A stretch of DNA of 64,000 nucleotides. It comes from Escherichia coli. GTDB lineage: Bacteria > Pseudomonadota > Gammaproteobacteria > Enterobacterales > Enterobacteriaceae. The notes under the pieces are model-generated. The model searched no databases and was not told where the DNA came from. It saw only the letters and a program-made list of their open reading frames with translations. How positions within the stretch are numbered: position 1 is the stretch's first letter; each line of letters begins with the position of its first letter. The stretch lies in the NCBI RefSeq assembly GCF_036507355.1, contig NZ_AP027877.1; one strand, 5' to 3'. This document shows positions 1,958 through 14,050 of this stretch, one piece after another. The position numbers and the translations under genes were made by a program.

Positions 1958-2011
1958 ATGTCGCAAAATCAAGAAATTAGCAAGAAAGAACAATACAACC
2001 TGAACAAGTAA
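1958..2011 (+). pseudogene. ttcC: displaced 5' fragment of ttcA at the prophage end (ttcC-like)
   Basis: 17-codon [20 protein letters not shown] closely resembling the ttcA N-terminus at 13115; contains the 26-bp att core. Confidence 0.7.
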
Positions 2012-2110
2012 GGGCAAAAATCACAACTATCTGACTCATAAGTGTTTTACTTATTTTTCAATGTGTTAAACATCATCAGCGAGAACAATAAACTACGATA
2101 ATCAACTCTT

Positions 2111-2160
2111 TTTTTGCCCCTTTTTTGCCCCTTTTGCAGCGTTTTGCCCCATTTTTGCCA
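2111..2160 (+). repeat. three direct TTTGCCCC repeats next to the tail-side att core (putative integrase arm-type sites)
   Basis: tttgcccc at 2114-2121, 2125-2132 and 2144-2151; same motif twice at 13072-13090 beside the int-side core. Confidence 0.5.
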
Positions 2161-2248
2161 CAAAAAAAAATTCCAAAACGTCTCAATCAAAGTCAAACCA
2201 ACCGCAGCACGTTCTTGCTTAAGACGTGCTGCGGCATAATCCCAATGA

Positions 2249-2833
2249 TTACTCCCTGACAGGGTTCGTAGGCCACTCAATATCAGGTGCAGTTGATGTA
2301 TCAACACGGTTCAGCAACACCCGATACTTTTTCCAGGCTTCCAGCAATGAGGTTTCTTCCTCCGTTGCGATTTCCAGATCCACAGCATCCTGAAGTGGCG
2401 CAATATGCTCACTGGCTACCTGCATCAGGCTGTTTTTTGTTTCTTCCGCCTCTCGGATCCGGAACAGTTTTTCTGCTTCTGCATCTTTCACCCAGGCTGT
2501 GCCGTTCCACTTCTGAAACTCCCCTTCCGGCGATAACCAGGTAACATTTTCCGGTAACGGACCGAGTTCAGAAATAAATAACGCGTCCCCTGACGCTACG
2601 TCATAAACCGTTTTACCCCGATGGTCTTCAACGAGATGCCACGATGCCTCATCACTGTTGAAAACAGCCACGAAGCCTGCCGGAATATCTGGCGGTGCAA
2701 TATCGGTACTGTTTGCTGGCAGACCTGTATGAGGCGGAATATATGCATCACCTTCACCAATAAATTCATTAGTTCCGGCCAGCAGATTATAAATTTTTAT
2801 GGTCCGTGGTTGTTCACTCATTCTGAATGCCAT
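2249..2833 (-). CDS. tfaR: tail fibre assembly protein
   Basis: 194-aa [23 protein letters not shown]... typical lambdoid Tfa, directly downstream of the tail fibre fragment. Confidence 0.85.
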
Positions 2834-3750
2834 TATGCAAGCCTCACAATGTAGTTAAATGCGATGTTTTTGACGGTGTTTTCCGCGTTACCCGCAGCGT
2901 TAACGGTGATGGTGTGTCCATGTGAGCCAATCGAAACAGAGTGCGTATGAGCACCAATTCCGACAGTATGTGCGTGAGCACCTGCAGATGCAGCTGTGCC
3001 GCTGACACTATGAGTGTGCGCTCCTGCAGCACTTGTATTCACACTGGCCGCAGACACAACCTTATGTACTGACCCATTTTGTGACTACTGGCTGACTGCT
3101 GATGCGCCTGTGACACTATGAGTATGGTTTCCGGCACTTGCGGCTGTACCGCTCACACTGTGTGTATGTGCCCCGGTGTTATTCGTAGATTTAGTGCCGT
3201 AATCAAACGACGATGTGGTTTTCGTACCCAAATCCGTACTGGATGCGCTGGCGCTGTGGGTGTGCGATTTAATACCGTCCTGTTCCTGAGACAATACGGC
3301 CCGACCACTGGCAGGTTTGCCCTTAATCGTCCAGCCACGCATATCAGGGATCACGCCTGACGGATAAGCGGCTGCAAGTTTCGGGTAAGCAGATTTGTCA
3401 AAAGTTTGCCCCTGCATCAGGGCATAGCCAGACGGAACGGTATCTGATGGCCACGGGATTGGTGCACCGACTGGATAAAACTCTGCAGGAGGATGAGCTG
3501 AGGTGTAAAGCTGCGCCCACGGCGACCAGTTTGCGTCGGTCGTATCCCGTCGTGAACGAATAAATGCCGGAGCATGAGCACCGCTTGTACCACTCCAGCC
3601 GATGAGTAACTCACCTTCGCCAACGGCTGTCATCCCTTTCAGGTGAATGATATTTCCATACGCTGTTGGATATCCGTTGTTATACACCTCGTATAACTCA
3701 AGACCTGTTGCCCCCTGCGTATTGTCTGTCAGCGCGGTTAGCCGCCATTG
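2833..3750 (-). pseudogene. stfR: side tail fibre C-terminal fragment with in-frame amber stop
   Basis: open frame from the TGA at 3751-3753 through ...[23 protein letters not shown]... with [13 protein letters not shown] repeats; TAG at 3085-3087 splits it; N-terminal bulk of the gene absent. Confidence 0.8.
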
Positions 3751-4217
3751 TCACCAAGAAAATCCCCGCCCTGCGACATAGCGATGGAAAGAGCAGGTAT
3801 TGATTCGTAGTACGCCAGCATTTCAGAAAGGATCGCATCCAGTTTCCTTATCGGAAAATAGGCCTGGTCATAGTTGCGATCCACCCGAAACTGGAACTCG
3901 TGATAATCATCATCGAGCTGAATGAAGTATTTACACCCGACCAGTTTTGCCTGGTCGAAACAGGCATTACGGGCGTAAAAAATTGAGCGGCGGTCACAGA
4001 AATTATCGGCTTCGTCAAAACGACTGGCGATATCGGCTTTGGAAAACACCAGCACCTGTTCACCAAATTCAGCCATGTACTGATGCCGTGTCTTATCTTC
4101 ATCATCAACAACGATAAAAATTTTCCCGGTATAGCCAGCACGACGCAACGTCCGGTAAGTCAGAACTTTGTCCGGTCGCCCGTGAGTCAGAATAAAGGCG
4201 CAAAAATCATCACGCAT
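3738..4217 (-). CDS. GT-A fold glycosyltransferase-like protein, probably C-terminally truncated
   Basis: 159 aa from the ATG overlapping the upstream stop (ATGCGTGA) behind a GGAGGAGGA RBS; motifs FILTHGRPD...IFIVVDDED and [23 protein letters not shown] resemble GT2 signatures including DxD. Confidence 0.5.
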
Positions 4218-5001
4218 ATTCCTCCTCCTCACCACCATGCATGATCTCCACCATGCGCTGCGTCATCCGGACAAATCCATTTTCAATAGCCTGCTGATAA
4301 TCAATGATCACCAGCGCCGACTCCTCGAAAAAACACTGAATTTCAGCGGGGGCGTGAGCGTAATAGTCCGCAATTCTGCTGAAATTAAACACCGTGTGAC
4401 GTTCTGCCGCACACAGGAGGAATTTCTCAATATCAGGCTCAAGGGACGCCGAACGTATCCGGCTGATCAGCTCCTGAGTTTTCGTATCGTCGTACAGTTC
4501 ACTGATATCCGGTTTACCGCCCGACGGCTCATAAACAGGCGTATCAATTTTCGTCGTATACGGCTCCTCCTCATTTCCTGTACCGGGCAAAACATCCGTC
4601 AACAGTTCATCAATTTCTGTCGGGATGAAGCCTGTCAGGGAGACATCAAAATCAGCATTGATTAGGTCCGACAGCTCCATCCGCAACAGATCTTCATCCC
4701 AGCCAGCATTCATCGGCAGGCGATTATCTGCCAGGCGGTACGCCTTTTTCTGCTCATCCGTCAGGCCAGACAGAACAATGACCGGAACAGAATCCATTTT
4801 GAGCATTTCAGCCGCCATAACACGACCGTGACCCGCAATAATTTCGCCCTTTTCGTCAATCAGCACCGGATTAGTCCAGCCGAATTGCTTAATACTTTCT
4901 ACCAGTTGTGCCACCTGCTCAGTACTGTGCGTCCTGGCGTTGTGCGCATACGGTGACAATTCTTGTAATGGGCGATAGACTATCTTTAATTTCTCGCTCA
5001 T
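4210..5001 (-). CDS. ParB/Srx-fold (ParB-like nuclease domain) protein, ynaK-like
   Basis: 263-aa ORF; N-terminal region with GHGR motif (IIAGHGRVMAAEML) typical of the ParB/sulfiredoxin fold; acidic C-terminus. Confidence 0.6.
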   Translation of the reverse strand: MSEKLKIVYRPLQELSPYAHNARTHSTEQVAQLVESIKQFGWTNPVLIDEKGEIIAGHGRVMAAEMLKMDSVPVIVLSGLTDEQKKAYRLADNRLPMNAGWDEDLLRMELSDLINADFDVSLTGFIPTEIDELLTDVLPGTGNEEEPYTTKIDTPVYEPSGGKPDISELYDDTKTQELISRIRSASLEPDIEKFLLCAAERHTVFNFSRIADYYAHAPAEIQCFFEESALVIIDYQQAIENGFVRMTQRMVEIMHGGEEEEYA

Positions 5002-5138
5002 ACAGCCTTGCTTTATGAATAAAACGCACCCCAGCAGCCAGTGCTACTGGGGACGGAGGTGTTGCTGGTAAAGTTAGGTATTGGATCAATGAGTGAGTCA
5101 ACATAATATTAAACTCACAATTATAAATCAGCCATATA

Positions 5139-6614
5139 TTAGGAGCGCCAAAAAAAACCTGAAAACAATATAATAACAGGATAAATTTCAAGGCGACCAA
5201 GAATCATAGCTATGCACATTAAACATTTTGCAATGTCATTAAGCACTCCGAATGACGATGCAGTAGCCCCAAAACCTAATCCCATATTATTAATACATGC
5301 AGCCACTGTTGCAAATGATGTAAGAAAATCATATCCCATACCATTTAACACCAGTATAAAAAACACCGTGAAGAGAGTATAAAGAAAAAAGAAACTCCAT
5401 ACAGACCTCATTACACGATCTGTAACTATCTTCCCTCCTACATTTACACTCAACAACGCTCTGGGATGAGAAAGCTGATTTATCTCGTGTTTGCTTTGTT
5501 TGAAAAGTATAAGAAATCGAAGTGACTTAATTCCACCACAAGTTGAACCTATACATCCCCCAAAGAAACTTGACAACAGCAAAAACACTATCGTGTGCGT
5601 GGGCCAACTTGCATAATCCTGCGTAGCTAAACCATTATCAGTGAGCATGGAGCTGGCAAGAAAAAACGAATGAATAAAACTTCCATGCAAGTCATACATA
5701 CCTATATGCCAGACCTGGAAAGAGGTAACAATGATCACCCCTAAGGCTATTAACAGAAAGAAACGAAGTTCAATATCTCTGATTAAAGGTTTTATCGTTT
5801 TCCTGCTAATAACAATATACCAAAGAGTGAAGTTGAAAGCCGATAGCAGGGAAAAAGAACCAGCCACCAGCTCAACCAAATAGTTATTAAAATATCCGAT
5901 ACTCTCGCTATGAGTTGAGAAACCACCAAGCGAAACTGTGGAAATCCCGTGACAAATAGCATCAAACAAAGGCATTCCTGCAAGTCTATAACAGACAATA
6001 CAAGCAATACCTAATAAAGAATAAGTTATCCACAGTGTCCGTGACGTATCGGCCAGGCGGGGAGTGAGTTTGTCATCCTTAAATGGCCCCGGCATTTCTG
6101 ACTGATAAAGCTTTGCACCACCAATACCCAATAATGGCAATACAGCAACCGCCAGAACAATAACTCCTAAACCACCTATAAAATTTAACTGTGACCGATA
6201 GTACAAATATGCCCGAGGTAATGAACTAACATCATCAATTACAGTTGCTCCTGTTGTTGTTATTCCAGAAACCCCTTCAAACAGAGCATCAATGAACGTT
6301 AAATTAAGTTCTGAGTCAATCCATAAAGGGAATGCACTAATAACAGAAAACAAAATCCAAAACATTACAATTATAATAAACCCATCACGGGTACGTAATT
6401 GAATGCCAGATTTCTTAGTTGTATACCACGCTCCGCCACCAATGCAAAAAAATATAACGAAAGTTATAAAGAAAACGAACAGGCTTTTTTCTTTATAAAA
6501 CAATGCTACAACCATTGGTGGCAACATTGAAAGACTATAGAGCCAAACCAGGAACCCACACATATGAGTAACAACTCTTACATGAGATGTATTCATATCT
6601 AAATATTCTTTCAA
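5139..6614 (-). CDS. trkG: Trk potassium uptake protein TrkG (prophage moron)
   Basis: polytopic membrane protein with TrkH/TrkG-type repeats; AT-rich relative to flanks; likely true start at 6596 (MNTSHVRVV...). Confidence 0.9.
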   Translation of the reverse strand: MKEYLDMNTSHVRVVTHMCGFLVWLYSLSMLPPMVVALFYKEKSLFVFFITFVIFFCIGGGAWYTTKKSGIQLRTRDGFIIIVMFWILFSVISAFPLWIDSELNLTFIDALFEGVSGITTTGATVIDDVSSLPRAYLYYRSQLNFIGGLGVIVLAVAVLPLLGIGGAKLYQSEMPGPFKDDKLTPRLADTSRTLWITYSLLGIACIVCYRLAGMPLFDAICHGISTVSLGGFSTHSESIGYFNNYLVELVAGSFSLLSAFNFTLWYIVISRKTIKPLIRDIELRFFLLIALGVIIVTSFQVWHIGMYDLHGSFIHSFFLASSMLTDNGLATQDYASWPTHTIVFLLLSSFFGGCIGSTCGGIKSLRFLILFKQSKHEINQLSHPRALLSVNVGGKIVTDRVMRSVWSFFFLYTLFTVFFILVLNGMGYDFLTSFATVAACINNMGLGFGATASSFGVLNDIAKCLMCIAMILGRLEIYPVIILFSGFFWRS

Positions 6615-6731
6615 TTATAACCACCTTGCTGCAATATTATGATTATACTGTATAAAATTTAACTCCTCTTAGATCTTACTTCACTGTTCCTTATGAAACA
6701 ATCATCAAAATGAATCATATTGTAGTTAAGA

Positions 6732-6862
6732 TTTTACTTTAAACACTGCTCGGTTATGTATTGCTGAGCACCTTCAAGTTGGGCCTGCATCATTACCAGT
6801 CGTTCCCGGAGGGTGAAATAATCCCGTTCAGCGGTGTCTGCCAGTCGGGGGGAGGCTGCATT
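6732..6862 (-). pseudogene. rzpR: Rz-like endopeptidase C-terminal fragment
   Basis: frame reading ...LADTAERDYFTLRERLVMMQAQLEGAQQYITEQCLK-stop, matching the Rz C-terminus; cut off by IS3 at 6863. Confidence 0.6.
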
Positions 6863-6892
6863 TGATCCTACCCACGTAATATGGACACAGGC

Positions 6893-7759
6893 CTAAGCGA
6901 GGTTCTGGTTTTCAAATTGTTCCGGACTGAGGCCGCCACACCAACTGTGCCGCCGCCACCGATTGTAATCACATTCGATATAATTAAACACCGTTGCCCG
7001 CATTATTTCCCGGCTGATAAAGTGTTCTCCATGGATACATTCCACTTTCAGCGAATGAAAGAAGCTTTCCACGCAGGCATTATCGTAGCAGCAACCTTTT
7101 GCGCTCATACTTCCACGCAGATTATGCCGCTTCAGTTGCGCCTGATAATCTGCTGAACAGTACTGGCCTCCACGGTCCGTGTGAACGATAACGTTCCGGG
7201 GCCTCTTACGCCGCCACAGCGCCATCTGCAGGGCATCGCAGGCCAGTTGCGCCGTCATGCGTGGCGACATTGACCAGCCAATAACGGCACGTGACCACAG
7301 GTCAATGACCACTGCCAGATACAGCCAGCCTTCATCTGTACGTAAGTACGTGATGTCTCCTGCCCACTTCTGGTTCGGGCCACTGGCGTAAAAATCCTGC
7401 TCCAACAGATTTTCTGACACAGGCAGGCCGTGTGCGCGGTAGCTGACCGGGCTGAACTTCCGGGAGGCCTTTGCCCTCAGTCCCTGACGGCGCAGGCTTG
7501 CCGCCACGGTTTTTACGTTAAAGGGGTAACCCTGAGCACGCAGTTCATCCGTCAGGCGTGGGGCACCGTAACGCTGTTTTGACCGGGTAAAAGCCGCGAG
7601 GACAACGCTGTCGCAGTGTTGGCGGAACTGCTGACGCGTGCTTATCCTTGTCCGCCGCTGACACCACGTATACCAGCCGCTGCGGGCCACCCGGAGCACG
7701 CGGCACATTGCTTTGATGCTGAACTCAGCCTGATGTTTTTCAATAAAGACATACTTCAT
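6893..7759 (-). CDS. insF: IS3 transposase OrfB (DDE integrase domain)
   Basis: 288-aa [35 protein letters not shown]... with DDE-type catalytic region. Confidence 0.9.
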
Positions 7760-8064
7760 TTCAGGCGCTTCGCGAAGTATGTCGCGGCCTTTTGGAGGAT
7801 AGCCAGCTCTTCATCCCGTTCTGCCAGCTGGCGTTTGAGACGTGCAATCTCGGTAGACATCTCCAGTTCACGTTCAGAAGACGTCTGCTGATTTTGCTGT
7901 TTACTGCGCCAGTTGTAGAGCTGTGATTCATACAGGCTGAGTTCACGGGCTGCGGCAGTAACACCGATGCGTTCAGCAAGCTTCAGGGCTTCACTGCGAA
8001 ATTCAGGCGAATGCTGTTTACGGGGTTTTTTACTGGTTGATACTGTTTTTGTCATGTGAGTCAC
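7756..8064 (-). CDS. insE: IS3 transposase OrfA
   Basis: 102-aa HTH protein [34 protein letters not shown]... Confidence 0.9.
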
Positions 8065-8120
8065 CTCTGACTGAGAGTTTACTCACTTAGCCGCGTGTCC
8101 ACTATTGCTGGGTAAGATCA

Positions 8121-9500
8121 CCGGACGCAACTGAACATCATCAGGACACGCAGCCGCTGGATGCTCAGTCACAGGTAAATTCTGTTGATGCGAAATATCA
8201 GGAACTGCGGGCAGAACTCCATGAAGCCCGGAAAAACATTCCATCAAAAAATCCTGTCGATGCCGATAAATTGCTTGCTGCATCACGTGGTGAATTTGTT
8301 GACGGAATTAGCGACCCGAACGATCCGAAATGGGTAAAGGGGATCCAGACTCGCGATTGTGTGTACCAGAACCAGCCAGAAACGGAAAAAACCAGCCCAG
8401 ATATGAATCAACCTGAGCCAGTAGTGCAACAGGAACCGGAAATAGCCTGCAATGCCTGCGGCCAGACTGGCGGGGATAACTGCCCTGACTGTGGTGCGGT
8501 GATGGGCGACGCAACATACCAGGAAACATTCGATGAAGAGAGTCAGGTTGAAGCTAAGGAAAATGATCCGGAGGAAATGGAAGGCGCTGAACATCCGCAC
8601 AATGAGAATGCTGGCAGCGATCCGCATCGCGATTGCAGTGATGAAACTGGCGAAGTCGCAGATCCCGTAATCGTAGAAGACATAGAGCCAGGTATTTATT
8701 ACGGAATTTCGAATGAGAATTACCACGCGGGTCCCGGTATCAGTAAGTCTCAGCTCGATGACATTGCTGATACTCCGGCACTATATTTGTGGCGTAAAAA
8801 TGCCCCCGTGGACACCACAAAGACAAAAACGCTCGATTTAGGAACTGCTTTCCACTGCCGGGTACTTGAACCGGAAGAATTCAGTAACCGCTTTATCGTA
8901 GCACCTGAATTTAACCGCCGTACAAACGCCGGAAAAGAAGAAGAGAAAGCGTTTCTGATGGAATGCGCAAGCACAGGAAAAACGGTTATCACTGCGGAAG
9001 AAGGCCGGAAAATTGAACTCATGTATCAAAGCGTTATGGCTTTGCCGCTGGGGCAATGGCTTGTTGAAAGCGCCGGACACGCTGAATCATCAATTTACTG
9101 GGAAGATCCTGAAACAGGAATTTTGTGTCGGTGCCGTCCGGACAAAATTATCCCTGAATTTCACTGGATCATGGACGTGAAAACTACGGCGGATATTCAA
9201 CGATTCAAAACCGCTTATTACGACTACCGCTATCACGTTCAGGATGCATTCTACAGTGACGGTTATGAAGCACAGTTTGGAGTGCAGCCAACTTTCGTTT
9301 TTCTGGTTGCCAGCACAACTATTGAATGCGGACGTTATCCGGTTGAAATTTTCATGATGGGCGAAGAAGCAAAACTGGCAGGTCAACAGGAATATCACCG
9401 CAATCTGCGAACCCTGTCTGACTGCCTGAATACCGATGAATGGCCAGCTATTAAGACATTATCACTGCCCCGCTGGGCTAAGGAATATGCAAATGACTAA
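8121..9500 (+). pseudogene. recE: exonuclease VIII (RecE) C-terminal fragment, N-terminally truncated at the IS3 junction
   Basis: frame open from the IS3 boundary; ends ...[13 protein letters not shown] and overlaps the recT start as in Rac; about 460 of ~866 codons remain. Confidence 0.8.
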
Positions 9501-10302
9501 GCAACCACCAATCGCAAAAGCCGATCTGCAAAAAACTCAGGGAAACCGTGCACCAGCAGCAGTTAAAAATAGCGACGTGATTAGTTTTATTAACCAGCCA
9601 TCAATGAAAGAGCAACTGGCAGCAGCTCTTCCACGCCATATGACGGCTGAACGTATGATCCGTATCGCCACCACAGAAATTCGTAAAGTTCCGGCGTTAG
9701 GAAACTGTGACACTATGAGTTTTGTCAGTGCGATCGTACAGTGTTCACAGCTCGGACTTGAGCCAGGTAGCGCCCTCGGTCATGCATATTTACTGCCTTT
9801 TGGTAATAAAAACGAAAAGAGCGGTAAAAAGAACGTTCAGCTAATCATTGGCTATCGCGGCATGATTGATCTGGCTCGCCGTTCTGGTCAAATCGCCAGC
9901 CTGTCAGCCCGTGTTGTCCGTGAAGGTGACGAGTTTAGCTTCGAATTTGGCCTTGATGAAAAGTTAATACACCGCCCGGGAGAAAACGAAGATGCCCCGG
10001 TTACCCACGTCTATGCTGTCGCAAGACTGAAAGACGGAGGTACTCAGTTTGAAGTTATGACGCGCAAACAGATTGAGCTGGTGCGCAGCCTGAGTAAAGC
10101 TGGTAATAACGGGCCGTGGGTAACTCACTGGGAAGAAATGGCAAAGAAAACGGCTATTCGTCGCCTGTTCAAATATCTGCCCGTATCAATTGAGATCCAG
10201 CGTGCAGTATCAATGGATGAAAAGGAACCACTGACAATCGATCCTGCAGATTCCTCTGTATTAACCGGGGAATACAGTGTAATCGATAATTCAGAGGAAT
10301 AA
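9493..10302 (+). CDS. recT: recombinase RecT (single-strand annealing protein)
   Basis: 269 aa starting [24 protein letters not shown]... Confidence 0.9.
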
Positions 10303-10431
10303 TTCAGCCTGGCGGTGTAATGCACCGCCAACTTGAAATATTTTTTATGAGAAAAATTATGAGATATGACAATGTTGGTGATGCTGCCAACTTACTGATT
10401 TAGTGTATGATGGTGTTTTTGAGGTGCTCCA

Positions 10432-10707
10432 GTGGCTTCTGTTTCTATCAGCTGTCCCTCCTGTTCAGCTACTGACGGGGTGGTGCGTAACGGCAAAAGC
10501 ACCGCCGGACATCAGCGCTATCTCTGCTCTCACTGCCGTAAAACATGGCAACTGCAGTTCACTTACACCGCTTCTCAACCCGGTACGCACCAGAAAATCA
10601 TTGATATGGCCATGAATGGCGTTGGATGCCGGGCAACAGCCCGCATTATGGGCATTGGCCTCAACACGATTTTACGTCACTTAAAAAACTCAGGCCGCAG
10701 TCGGTAA
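10432..10707 (+). CDS. insA: IS1 InsA
   Basis: 91-aa [23 protein letters not shown]... zinc-finger/HTH protein; A6C frameshift motif near 10683. Confidence 0.9.
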
Positions 10708-11129
10708 CCTCGCGCATACAGCCGGGCAGTGACGTCATCGTCTGCGCGGAAATGGACGAACAGTGGGGCTATGTCGGGGCTAAATCGCGCCAGCGCTGGC
10801 TGTTTTACGCGTATGACAGGCTCCGGAAGACGGTTGTTGCGCACGTATTCGGTGAACGCACGATGGCGACGCTGGGGCGTCTTATGAGCCTGCTGTCACC
10901 CTTTGACGTGGTGATATGGATGACGGATGGCTGGCCGCTGTATGAATCCCGCCTGAAGGGAAAGCTGCACGTAATCAGCAAGCGATATACGCAGCGAATT
11001 GAGCGGCATAACCTGAATCTGAGGCAGCACCTGGCACGGCTGGGACGGAAGTCGCTGTCGTTCTCAAAATCGGTGGAGCTGCATGACAAAGTCATCGGGC
11101 ATTATCTGAACATAAAACACTATCAATAA
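10626..11129 (+). CDS. insB: IS1 InsB (expressed as the InsAB' frameshift fusion)
   Basis: 167-aa ORF overlapping insA in the -1 frame. Confidence 0.85.
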
Positions 11130-11322
11130 GTTGGAGTCATTACCGACAATGTTAAACCATGTCCATTTTGTGGTTGTCCATCAGTAACGGTGAAAGCCAT
11201 TTCAGGATATTACCGAGCGAAGTGTAACGGATGCGAATCCCGAACCGGTTATGGTGGAAGTGAAAAAGAAGCACTCGAAAGATGGAATAAACGAACCACT
11301 GGAAATAATAATGGAGGTGTTC

Positions 11323-11532
11323 ATGTATAAAATTACCGCCACTATTGAAAAGGAAGGTGGCACTCCTACTAACTGGACAAGATATTCAAAATCTAAACTA
11401 ACGAAATCAGAATGCGAAAAAATGCTCTCAGGTAAAAAAGAAGCAGGCGTTTCCAGAGAGCAGAAAGTAAAACTGATAAATTTTAATTGCGAGAAACTTC
11501 AGTCCTCGAGAATTGCATTGTATTCAAATTAA
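11323..11532 (+). CDS. ydaC: Rac prophage small protein YdaC
   Basis: 69 aa MYKITATIEKEGGTPTNWTRYSKSKL...; conserved position between ralR and xis. Confidence 0.7.
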   Translation: MYKITATIEKEGGTPTNWTRYSKSKLTKSECEKMLSGKKEAGVSREQKVKLINFNCEKLQSSRIALYSN

Positions 11533-11610
11533 AACTTCATAGCTGATTATTAATAATCAACATCGGGCGTCAATTTCAGTCTAACATTGGCGCCTGCCAG
11601 AGGTGATGCG

Positions 11611-11826
11611 ATGGCACAAGTAATCTTTAATGAAGAGTGGATGGTTGAATACGGCCTGATGCTTCGCACTGGTCTGGGGGCCAGACAAATTGAAGCATAC
11701 CGCCAGAACTGTTGGGTGGAGGGCTTCCACTTCAAACGAGTATCTCCTTTAGGTAAGCCAGACAGCAAACGAGGGATTATCTGGTACAACTATCCAAAGA
11801 TAAATCAGTTTATCAAAGACTCATGA
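11611..11826 (+). CDS. xisR: prophage excisionase
   Basis: small protein [33 protein letters not shown]... immediately upstream of the integrase. Confidence 0.7.
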
Positions 11827-11827
11827 T

Positions 11828-13063
11828 ATGTCTAAATTACCAACAGGTGTCGAGATTAGAGGTAGATACATTCGCATCTGGTTCATGTTTCGAGGAAAAC
11901 GATGTCGGGAAACATTAAAAGGCTGGGAGATTACAAACAGTAATATTAAAAAGGCCGGAAATTTAAGAGCGCTGATAGTTCATGAAATAAACTCCGGTGA
12001 ATTTGAGTATTTAAGACGTTTTCCCCAGTCCAGCACTGGGGCAAAAATGGTGACAACGAGAGTCATAAAAACGTTCGGAGAGCTTTGTGATATCTGGACA
12101 AAAATTAAAGAGACAGAGTTAACAACAAACACAATGAAGAAAACGAAATCACAATTAAAAACACTCAGAATAATAATTTGTGAAAGTACCCCGATATCAC
12201 ATATTCGTTATAGCGATATCTTAAACTACCGGAATGAACTGCTGCATGGAGAAACGCTTTACCTGGATAATCCAAGATCCAACAAAAAAGGAAGAACCGT
12301 GCGCACAGTTGATAACTATATCGCCCTGCTCTGTTCGCTGTTGCGTTTTGCGTATCAGTCGGGATTTATATCAACCAAACCATTTGAAGGAGTAAAAAAA
12401 TTACAGCGAAACAGAATAAAGCCTGATCCGTTATCTAAAACAGAATTCAATGCATTAATGGAAAGTGAAAAAGGACAGAGCCAGAACTTGTGGAAATTTG
12501 CCGTTTACTCAGGACTTCGTCACGGGGAACTGGCAGCTCTGGCGTGGGAGGATGTGGATCTCGAAAAGGGAATAGTGAATGTCAGAAGAAACCTGACGAT
12601 ACTTGATATGTTCGGTCCCCCAAAAACAAATGCCGGGATCCGAACAGTAACACTACTGCAGCCTGCTCTTGAAGCACTGAAGGAGCAATACAAACTGACC
12701 GGGCATCATCGCAAAAGCGAAATCACCTTTTATCATCGGGAGTACGGCAGAACCGAAAAGCAAAAACTGCATTTTGTTTTCATGCCCAGGGTGTGTAACG
12801 GAAAACAAAAACCTTATTACTCGGTAAGCAGTTTGGGGGCAAGGTGGAATGCAGCAGTAAAACGTGCTGGTATTCGCCGCCGTAATCCGTACCATACGCG
12901 GCATACTTTTGCCTGCTGGCTGTTGACGGCAGGAGCGAACCCGGCATTTATAGCCAGCCAAATGGGGCATGAAACTGCGCAGATGGTGTATGAAATTTAC
13001 GGTATGTGGATTGATGACATGAACGACGAACAGATAGCCATGTTGAATGCGCGGTTATCGTAG
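11828..13063 (+). CDS. intR: tyrosine-type prophage integrase
   Basis: 411 aa, lambda Int-like, C-terminal RHTFA...Y catalytic region; next to the att core. Confidence 0.9.
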   Translation: MSKLPTGVEIRGRYIRIWFMFRGKRCRETLKGWEITNSNIKKAGNLRALIVHEINSGEFEYLRRFPQSSTGAKMVTTRVIKTFGELCDIWTKIKETELTTNTMKKTKSQLKTLRIIICESTPISHIRYSDILNYRNELLHGETLYLDNPRSNKKGRTVRTVDNYIALLCSLLRFAYQSGFISTKPFEGVKKLQRNRIKPDPLSKTEFNALMESEKGQSQNLWKFAVYSGLRHGELAALAWEDVDLEKGIVNVRRNLTILDMFGPPKTNAGIRTVTLLQPALEALKEQYKLTGHHRKSEITFYHREYGRTEKQKLHFVFMPRVCNGKQKPYYSVSSLGARWNAAVKRAGIRRRNPYHTRHTFACWLLTAGANPAFIASQMGHETAQMVYEIYGMWIDDMNDEQIAMLNARLS

Positions 13064-13071
13064 TTGCAAAG

Positions 13072-13090
13072 TTTGCCCCCAATTTGCCCC
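13072..13090 (+). repeat. two direct TTTGCCCC repeats between the int stop and the att core (putative arm-type sites)
   Basis: gtttgcccccaatttgcccca; same motif as at 2111-2160. Confidence 0.5.
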
Positions 13091-13114
13091 ATTTAGTACC
13101 AGGGAACTGAAATA

Positions 13115-14050
13115 ATGCAAGAAAATCAACAAATTACAAAGAAAGAACAATACAACCTGAACAAATTACAAAAACGCCTGCGTCGTAACGTGGGCGAAGC
13201 CATTGCTGACTTCAATATGATTGAAGAAGGCGATCGCATCATGGTTTGCCTCTCCGGGGGTAAAGACAGCTATACCATGCTGGAGATTCTGCGCAATTTG
13301 CAGCAAAGCGCGCCAATCAATTTTTCGCTGGTGGCTGTTAACCTCGATCAAAAGCAACCGGGCTTCCCGGAACACGTTCTGCCCGAGTATCTTGAAAAGC
13401 TGGGCGTTGAGTACAAGATTGTTGAAGAGAACACTTACGGTATCGTGAAAGAGAAGATTCCAGAGGGCAAAACCACTTGCTCACTGTGTTCTCGGCTACG
13501 TCGCGGTATCCTTTATCGCACCGCAACGGAACTGGGGGCGACGAAGATCGCGCTGGGTCACCATCGTGACGATATCCTGCAAACGCTGTTCTTAAATATG
13601 TTCTACGGCGGCAAGATGAAAGGTATGCCTCCGAAATTGATGAGCGATGATGGCAAACATATCGTGATTCGTCCGCTGGCCTACTGCCGCGAGAAAGATA
13701 TTCAGCGCTTTGCCGATGCAAAAGCGTTCCCGATTATTCCGTGCAACCTGTGCGGTTCACAGCCTAACCTGCAACGTCAGGTGATTGCTGACATGTTGCG
13801 TGACTGGGATAAACGTTATCCGGGGCGTATCGAGACGATGTTCAGCGCGATGCAGAATGTGGTGCCATCGCATCTGTGCGATACCAACCTGTTCGATTTT
13901 AAAGGCATTACCCACGGTTCTGAAGTGGTTAACGGGGGTGATCTGGCGTTTGATCGCGAAGAGATCCCACTACAACCGGCGGGCTGGCAGCCAGAAGAAG
14001 ATGAAAATCAGTTGGATGAGTTACGGCTGAATGTGGTTGAAGTGAAATAA
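13115..14050 (+). CDS. ttcA: tRNA 2-thiocytidine biosynthesis protein TtcA
   Basis: 311 aa with SGGKDS PP-loop and CxxC motifs; 5' end contains the att core. Confidence 0.9.

Follow-up and report, generated by a model that had tools for sequence, protein, structure and literature searches.

Paired direct repeats in both attachment-site arms of a Rac-like Escherichia coli prophage are predicted arm-type sites of the integrase IntR

Background

Arm-type sites are an ordinary and well-known kind of element, and the integrases of phages lambda and HK022 have a common arm-type specificity while differing in their core specificity. In the attP site of lambda, the N-terminal domains of Int occupy the arm-type sites of both the P and the P' arm, and the DNA between the arm and core sites is bent at binding sites for three proteins: IHF, Xis, and Fis (PMC4880445). 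Four Int protomers can thereby connect arm sites with core sites; the Xis sites are found in the P arm only (PMC4880445).

A subgroup of integrases named IntBPP-1, which includes those of Bordetella phage BPP-1, an Stx2a phage and Gifsy-2 and carries the DUF3596/PF12167 domain, was described by Smyshlyaev et al. (2021, PMC8138268). Its members were termed "putative integrases", and a beta-strand insertion in the catalytic domain is mentioned; arm-site sequences are absent from that paper. The Rac prophage, the excision of which affects biofilm formation and stress phenotypes, encodes the excisionase XisR, whose function is taken here from Liu et al. (2015, PMC4632033). Rac is among the most widespread prophages of E. 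coli, and descriptions of its att site so far go no further than the core. A search of a literature corpus with few subscription journals, which may have missed an older description, found no account of arm sites for IntR or for 933W-type or Gifsy-2-type integrases.

In this work, comparative genomics combined with structure prediction was applied to the attachment site of a Rac-like prophage in a stretch of E. coli DNA of 64,000 nucleotides (the window). We report six direct repeats, organized as three tandem pairs in the two phage-derived arms, which are very probably arm-type sites for predicted binding by IntR, as their motif, spacing, orientation and inter-arm distance are conserved among related elements.

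Results and discussion

The Rac-like prophage and its attachment cores

The gene order in the window is ompN, uspF, the remnant of a Rac-like prophage, ttcA, and dbpA. A perfect 26-bp repeat, AAGAAAGAACAATACAACCTGAACAA, is present at both junctions of the prophage and represents the two att cores (Table 1). The tail-side core sequence agrees with the Rac att sequences of Liu et al. (2015, PMC4632033). The xisR annotation in K-12 corresponds to the last 216 bp of the xisR ORF in the window.

The prophage between the cores (2008-13138) is about 11 kb long, compared with 23 kb in K-12, and contains trkG, recT, a recE fragment, and IS elements. None of the complete genomes in the collection matched this arrangement over 85%; the intR-ttcA junction itself was found in 2912 of 5426 complete E. 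coli genomes. Since both junctions, intR, xisR and all six arm sites are intact in the window, the remnant may still be excisable.

Table 1. Features of the prophage ends in the 64-kb window
Feature	Position	Strand	Remarks
att core, tail-side junction	1982..2007	.	26-bp identity; in ttcA-derived pseudo-start adjoining uspF
P arm of reconstructed attP	2008..2185	+	phage DNA, from core edge to end of alignability among Rac-type elements
P-arm site 1, TTTGCCCC	2113..2120	+	pair 1, first half; invariant in 8 Rac-type P arms
P-arm site 2, TTTGCCCC	2124..2131	+	11 bp after site 1
P-arm site 3, TTTGCCCC	2143..2150	+	pair 2, first half
P-arm site 4, variant TTTGCCAC	2154..2161	+	11 bp after site 3; one-mismatch pair
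xisR (ydaQ), excisionase ORF, DUF1233	11587..11826	+	directly upstream of intR
intR, 411-aa tyrosine integrase	11828..13063	+	Arm-DNA-bind_2 predicted at residues 5-69 (11840-12034)
P' arm of attP	13064..13138	+	phage DNA, from intR stop to core
P'-arm first site, TTTGCCCC	13072..13079	+	first half of int-side pair
P'-arm second site, TTTGCCCC	13083..13090	+	11 bp after first
ttcA ORF	13115-14050		first 8 codons phage-supplied (P' arm)
IHF consensus match, AATCAACAAATTA	13124..13136	+	between P' pair and core; candidate H'-like bending site; consensus match only
att core, int-side junction	13139..13164	.	within ttcA 5' end

Three tandem pairs of repeats in the att arms

The six sites form three tandem pairs with a start-to-start spacing of exactly 11 bp and one common orientation. 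The copies on the tail side start 106-147 bp past the core edge, and those on the int side come after the intR stop codon (13061-13063), their ends lying 49-60 bp short of the core edge. The same six sites are present in the Rac prophage of K-12 MG1655. The earlier note, made from the letters of the window, had placed three tail-side copies of TTTGCCCC at 2114-2151, 110-170 bp from the core; the copies are real and lie at arm distance, but the range was off by one base (2113-2150) and the distance is that given above. The two co-oriented copies that it placed at 13072-13090, between the intR stop and the int-side core, were recovered as exact matches on the plus strand.

In the window as a whole, TTTGCCCC occurs in 10 copies against 2.77 expected, a number that none of 100 shuffles reached, and the five copies outside the arms (3405, 12038-, 37127-, 42421, and 60782) are scattered singletons compatible with chance. 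The paired pattern TTGCCCC-N4-TTGCCCC with at most one mismatch has three matches in the 64 kb, all of them in the att arms, versus 0.02 expected. The tail-side arm is a T-rich, low-complexity sequence and TGCCCC alone is not over-represented across the window (31 copies versus 33 expected), as would suit functionless repeats that arose as a chance cluster in T-rich, C-rich low-complexity DNA or were passively inherited after a tandem duplication. The three pairs and their confinement to the att arms do not fit such an origin, on which the comparison of related elements also bears (see below).

The N-terminal domain of IntR

Residues 5-69 of IntR match the Pfam family PF12167 (Arm-DNA-bind_2, formerly DUF3596) with an E-value of 3.9e-26, and the catalytic domain (phage integrase, PF00589) follows on the C-terminal side. 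An AlphaFold2 model of residues 1-85, for which 36 relatives were used as input (mean pLDDT 82), contains three beta-strands followed by a long helix. This model matched AP2 domains (several structures, score 5-6), the arm-binding domain of the HPI integrase (3jtz, 4.8), lambda Int (1z1b, 4.4), the N-domain of Tn916 Int (1bb8, 3.8), and the N-domain of lambda Int on P'2 DNA (2wcc, 3.7); the scores are modest, as expected for a domain of 60 residues, and the set of matches is coherent. The predicted fold of the IntR N-domain is therefore the one by which integrases bind arm-type sites. The Tn916 Int and HPI/P4-like domains (1bb8, 3jtz) differ from it in sequence (15-16% identity), in Pfam family, and in DNA motif. 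By sequence, the closest solved structure is that of Tn1549 Int, which covers the catalytic part only; this proximity fits the reported kinship with the IntTn916 subgroup.

IntR is 42-44% identical to the integrase of the Stx2 phage PA5, which clusters with the integrases of 933W and Gifsy-2 as relatives of the CharmingMan Int. Judged by its PF12167 domain and by this kinship with the Stx-phage and Gifsy-2 enzymes, both of which are sequence-based, IntR belongs to the IntBPP-1 (PF12167) subgroup.

The P' pair in relatives of IntR

Pairs of TGCCCC(A) motifs, 11 bp apart, were found at the 3' end of int in CharmingMan, Klebsiella phage 2 LV-2017, and Stx2 phage PA5, the integrases of which are 42-44% identical to IntR. 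The pair is likewise present, within different flanks, next to integrases of about 70% identity that are located at ttcA in other enterobacteria. For a systematic comparison, one genome per species was taken, giving 80 loci with IntR relatives of 42-100% identity, and the P' pair was searched on the int strand from -50 to +80 of the int end. In a separate set of 80 loci with relatives from IMG/VR, nearly all end exactly at the int stop, and the P' arm is readable only in L059, L073, and L076.

The pattern NRYCCC-N5-NRYCCC was found in 74 of the 80 loci, versus 2 occurrences in the remainder of the same loci, a background of 316 kb on both strands (633 kb scanned), and the strict form TGCCCC-N5-TGCCCC in 48 loci versus 0 in the same background. 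The six loci without a pair have either a half-site degenerate by one base or a truncated int. In the anchored profile, in which the search pattern forces the CCC positions and leaves only the flanks and the preceding T, G and C positions free of bias, position 1 is T in 66 of 70 first sites and 59 of 70 second sites, position 2 is G in 69 of 70, and the 5-bp spacer and flanks hold at most 0.8 bit. The motif variants TGCCCC, CGCCCC and CACCCC are too few, and too confounded by coding constraints, to be set against N-domain residues in a covariation analysis. The core predicted to be recognised is (T)GCCCC(A), and not TTTGCCCC, the repeat named in the earlier note.

The position of the pair relative to the int stop differs between loci: it follows the stop in 23, lies within the coding tail in 49, and spans the stop in 2. 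The pair is retained over at least 25 unrelated downstream contexts, which indicates a constraint independent of the integration site. As the pair is coding in some of these contexts and non-coding in others, the constraint is on the DNA and not on the protein.

In most relatives with 42-56% identity (49 of 74 genome loci), the P' pair encodes a C-terminal tail, FAPxMPQ; examples of such in-ORF pairs are L004:3733-3749, L006:~3742-3760, and L297:~2451-2467. In Rac-type elements the stop codon precedes the pair, which is non-coding. The same DNA thus carries a double code in one of the lineages, and in the other it acts only in cis.

No TGCCCC pairs were seen downstream of int in Halomonas phage L007 and Pseudomonas phage CF60a (L008), whose more distant integrases are 29-30% identical to IntR; the record of one of these integrases names it an Arm DNA-binding domain protein. 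The motif thus has limits within PF12167, and presumably changes at some point below about 36% identity.

The P arm and the layout of the whole attP

Unrecombined Rac-type attP sites were found on two metagenomic contigs (L263 and L279), in the order int, P' pair, core, and two P pairs. The two arms that are separated by the prophage in the window are contiguous there and hence belong to one site. Both contigs came from a scan of viral contigs for TGCCCC-N5-TGCCCC-N8-38-TGCCCC, which gave 120 matches; since 116 of these had no IntR-family integrase in the stretch examined, this three-motif pattern is too weak for a collection of that size.

In total, 12 intact attPs were compared: the Rac-type L263 and L279, CharmingMan, Mulock, CobraSix, SaltyDalty, AsXd-1, Tritos, PSTRCR_117lys, pAEv1818, an Stx1 phage, and the composite of the window. 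In all of them a second pair or double pair follows the P' pair in the same orientation at 198-211 bp, measured from the first P' site to the first P site (198 bp in Rac). Most attPs have a single P pair, and two are present in Rac-type elements, CharmingMan, and Stx phages. The layout is kept even in the Aeromonas phage pAEv1818, the integrase of which has 36% identity to the CharmingMan enzyme, and the prophage form of Stx2 phage PA5 has the same layout divided between its two ends.

Among eight Rac-type P arms, all four sites are kept, the variant TTTGCCAC included, and the sole change is a C-to-T substitution that ETEC1730 has in site 3. Variation is found in the flanks and in the spacer separating the two pairs, and alignability stops near window position 2185. 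When eight diverse attPs are aligned, hardly any column outside the GCCCCA motifs of the P' and P pairs is invariant, and these attPs have no further conserved repeat.

These data bear directly on the origin of the repeats. The motifs are near-invariant over integrase identities of 42-100%, whereas spacers and flanks are randomised, and the comparison effectively refutes a chance origin; that the repeats are a functionless cluster or duplication is hardly credible.

Several observations, in turn, favour arm-type sites. A repeated motif distinct from the core sequence occurs in both phage-derived arms, outside the crossover region, and both motif and placement are conserved among related integrases irrespective of the core, attB or surrounding DNA. 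The reading of the repeats as IntR arm-type sites, first put forward for five copies, is supported by the domain, by the presence in both arms, and by conservation; it was incomplete, as there are six sites in three pairs.

Alternative readers of the repeats

The repeats might instead be sites of XisR, a recombination directionality factor, which would polymerise on tandem repeats and bend the arm in excision. Tandem direct repeats in a single att arm are a common target of excisionases, and XisR shifts a 294-bp AttR fragment that holds the core and the P-arm repeats (PMC4632033). A DUF1233/phrog_539 excisionase is also encoded alongside the integrase in every relative examined, including pAEv1818, where the excisionase has no Pfam match and still matches phrog_539; because it accompanies every relative, this co-occurrence cannot tell Int from Xis as the reader of the motif.

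We placed AttR and AttM on the K-12 sequence via the primers given in the supplement of PMC4632033. AttM starts right after the core, and the four P-arm repeats lie 105-154 bp from its end. In the single published gel-shift, this 291-bp fragment with all four repeats was not shifted by XisR (PMC4632033), so XisR does not bind the repeats alone in that assay. In addition, the motif pair is present in the P' arm near int as well, and in the P arm it is distal rather than core-proximal, unlike the lambda-type Xis layout. The dedicated arm-binding domain of the integrase, moreover, needs a target, and the attPs offer no rival conserved repeat. XisR binding is thus a very improbable explanation of the repeats.

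The shift of AttR by XisR needed the core and bacterial-flank part of the tail-side att, or else a site straddling the boundary between core and P arm, where the AttM primer starts. Such a target location is unusual for an excisionase site.

Another possibility is that the motif is read by a different factor, for instance a nucleoid protein of the host or a phage regulator, or that it is transcriptional, serving as an int terminator or a ttcA promoter or operator. The P' pair directly follows intR, at 25-43 bp upstream of the ttcA start codon that the phage supplies, and this end of the prophage must express ttcA; a regulatory side-role may exist. Scans of both arms, however, detected neither sigma-70 promoter-like nor intrinsic terminator-like sites. 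Relatives retain the motif in at least 25 unrelated contexts, even inside the int coding sequence, and its recurrence about 200-210 bp away in the other arm is unexplained by a local transcriptional role. TGCCCC is not known to resemble either the IHF or the Fis consensus. We judge a reader other than the integrase or the excisionase, or a transcriptional role, to be highly unlikely, and binding by IntR is the reading followed below.

A proposed mechanism and its comparison with lambda

In the proposed mechanism, IntR is a heterobivalent tyrosine recombinase that works at the 26-bp ttcA core through its core-binding and catalytic domains, both C-terminal, and its Arm-DNA-bind_2 domain (residues 5-69) would bind the (T)TGCCCC motif at the four P-arm sites on the tail side and the two P'-arm sites on the int side. 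As the sites of a pair are one helical turn (11 bp) apart, two N-domains could sit side by side. The circular phage form carries, in this order, the P' pair, the core, and two P pairs, with every site co-oriented. Bending proteins, IHF at a candidate site (Table 1) and XisR during excision, would fold the arms back so that core-bound protomers could bridge to the arm pairs. The outcome would be either an integrative complex of attP with attB or an excisive complex of the int-side with the tail-side att; an arrangement of two plus two sites would match four protomers. The binding by the N-domain, the role of IHF, and the use of sites in integration versus excision are what we infer from the features described above. 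By analogy with lambda, one may speculate that the extra P pair of Rac-type elements provides different sets of sites for integration and excision.

Perfect IHF consensus matches (WATCAANNNNTTR) lie immediately left of both cores, at 1967-1979 in bacterial ttcA-derived sequence and at 13124-13136 in the phage-supplied 5' end of ttcA. The latter may be incidental, because it is part of the coding sequence of ttcA and has a second copy on the bacterial side. Across the window there are 12 matches to the IHF consensus versus 3.0 expected, and no perfect one was found in the P arm.

The resemblance to lambda is evident in several respects. In both systems the integrase is heterobivalent and its DNA-binding N-terminal domain is small, and a repeat unrelated to the core occurs in both phage arms. 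As with the lambda sites P1, P2, P'1, P'2 and P'3, tandem sites about one helical turn apart lie by the int 3' end and distal sites lie in the other arm, and the predicted fold of the IntR N-domain matches the lambda structures 1z1b and 2wcc. There are also differences. The IntR N-domain belongs to PF12167, not to the lambda-type domain family, and the IntR-family motif is (T)TGCCCC. The IntR-type sites are strictly 11-bp pairs, in a 2+2 or 2+4 arrangement versus 2+3 in lambda, and all of them are co-oriented, whereas the P and P' sites of lambda are inverted relative to each other. In most IntR relatives the P' pair also lies within the int coding sequence, unlike in lambda. As for lambda and HK022, one arm motif is kept here while core and attB specificity diverge, over at least 25 integration contexts, but the IntR family spans a far larger scale, with integrases down to 36-42% identity.

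A possible common arm-site code

The paired TGCCCC motif appears, on comparison of IntR with its Stx-phage and other relatives, to fill the arm-site gap for the IntBPP-1 subgroup. Tentatively, the entire PF12167 (IntBPP-1) subgroup, including the Shiga-toxin phages of the 933W type and their relatives, may use a single arm-site code. Such a code, which we would rate as possible rather than probable, would consist of (T)GCCCC(A) pairs of 11-bp spacing, one in P' and one or two in P, about 200-210 bp apart and co-oriented. It might conceivably have persisted while core specificity diversified over dozens of integration sites, a notion held with equal reserve.

If the code is real, the integrases of co-resident prophages, for example Rac-like and Stx prophages in O157:H7, could bind each other's arms, and such cross-binding could couple or interfere with excision. 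Cross-recognition of arm sites between prophages in one cell is a testable prediction. For Rac, the arm sites would give attP a functional extent of about 280 bp and precise targets for locking or tuning excision. The motif geometry would further allow attP, attL and attR of prophages with PF12167 integrases, 933W-like Stx phages included, to be delimited by a simple rule based on sequence. Integrases with a common arm module and diverse core specificities would be a starting point for engineering.

Additional sequence features of the attachment regions

In the GenBank record of the Stx1 phage, AP005153, an attachment site is annotated, and the P pairs are overlapped by a "repeat_region" without an integrase-site label. 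In five 933W-like attPs, the DNA that separates the core region from the P pair contains a conserved block of some 28 bp, AAAATCGAYAAAGATCGTCCARGAGC (L004:~3843-3872 and equivalents in L290, L291, L292 and L297; alignment columns ~117-146). In the Stx1 phage it begins about 30 bp after the annotated attachment site. This block is a candidate site for an excisionase or IHF, or for the integrase close to the core; the Rac-type attP resembles it only faintly, in GGGCAAAAATCACAAC directly after the core.

Just past the P arm, at 2203-2236, the window has a GC-rich inverted repeat, CCGCAGCACGT...ACGTGCTGCGG, which is probably a terminator bounding the tail-fibre region. It has no T-run and is not called by a simple terminator scan. 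Similar inverted repeats are present in the K-12 Rac prophage (L002) and in the phages Tritos and CharmingMan (L294 and L004 equivalents), where a T-run follows.
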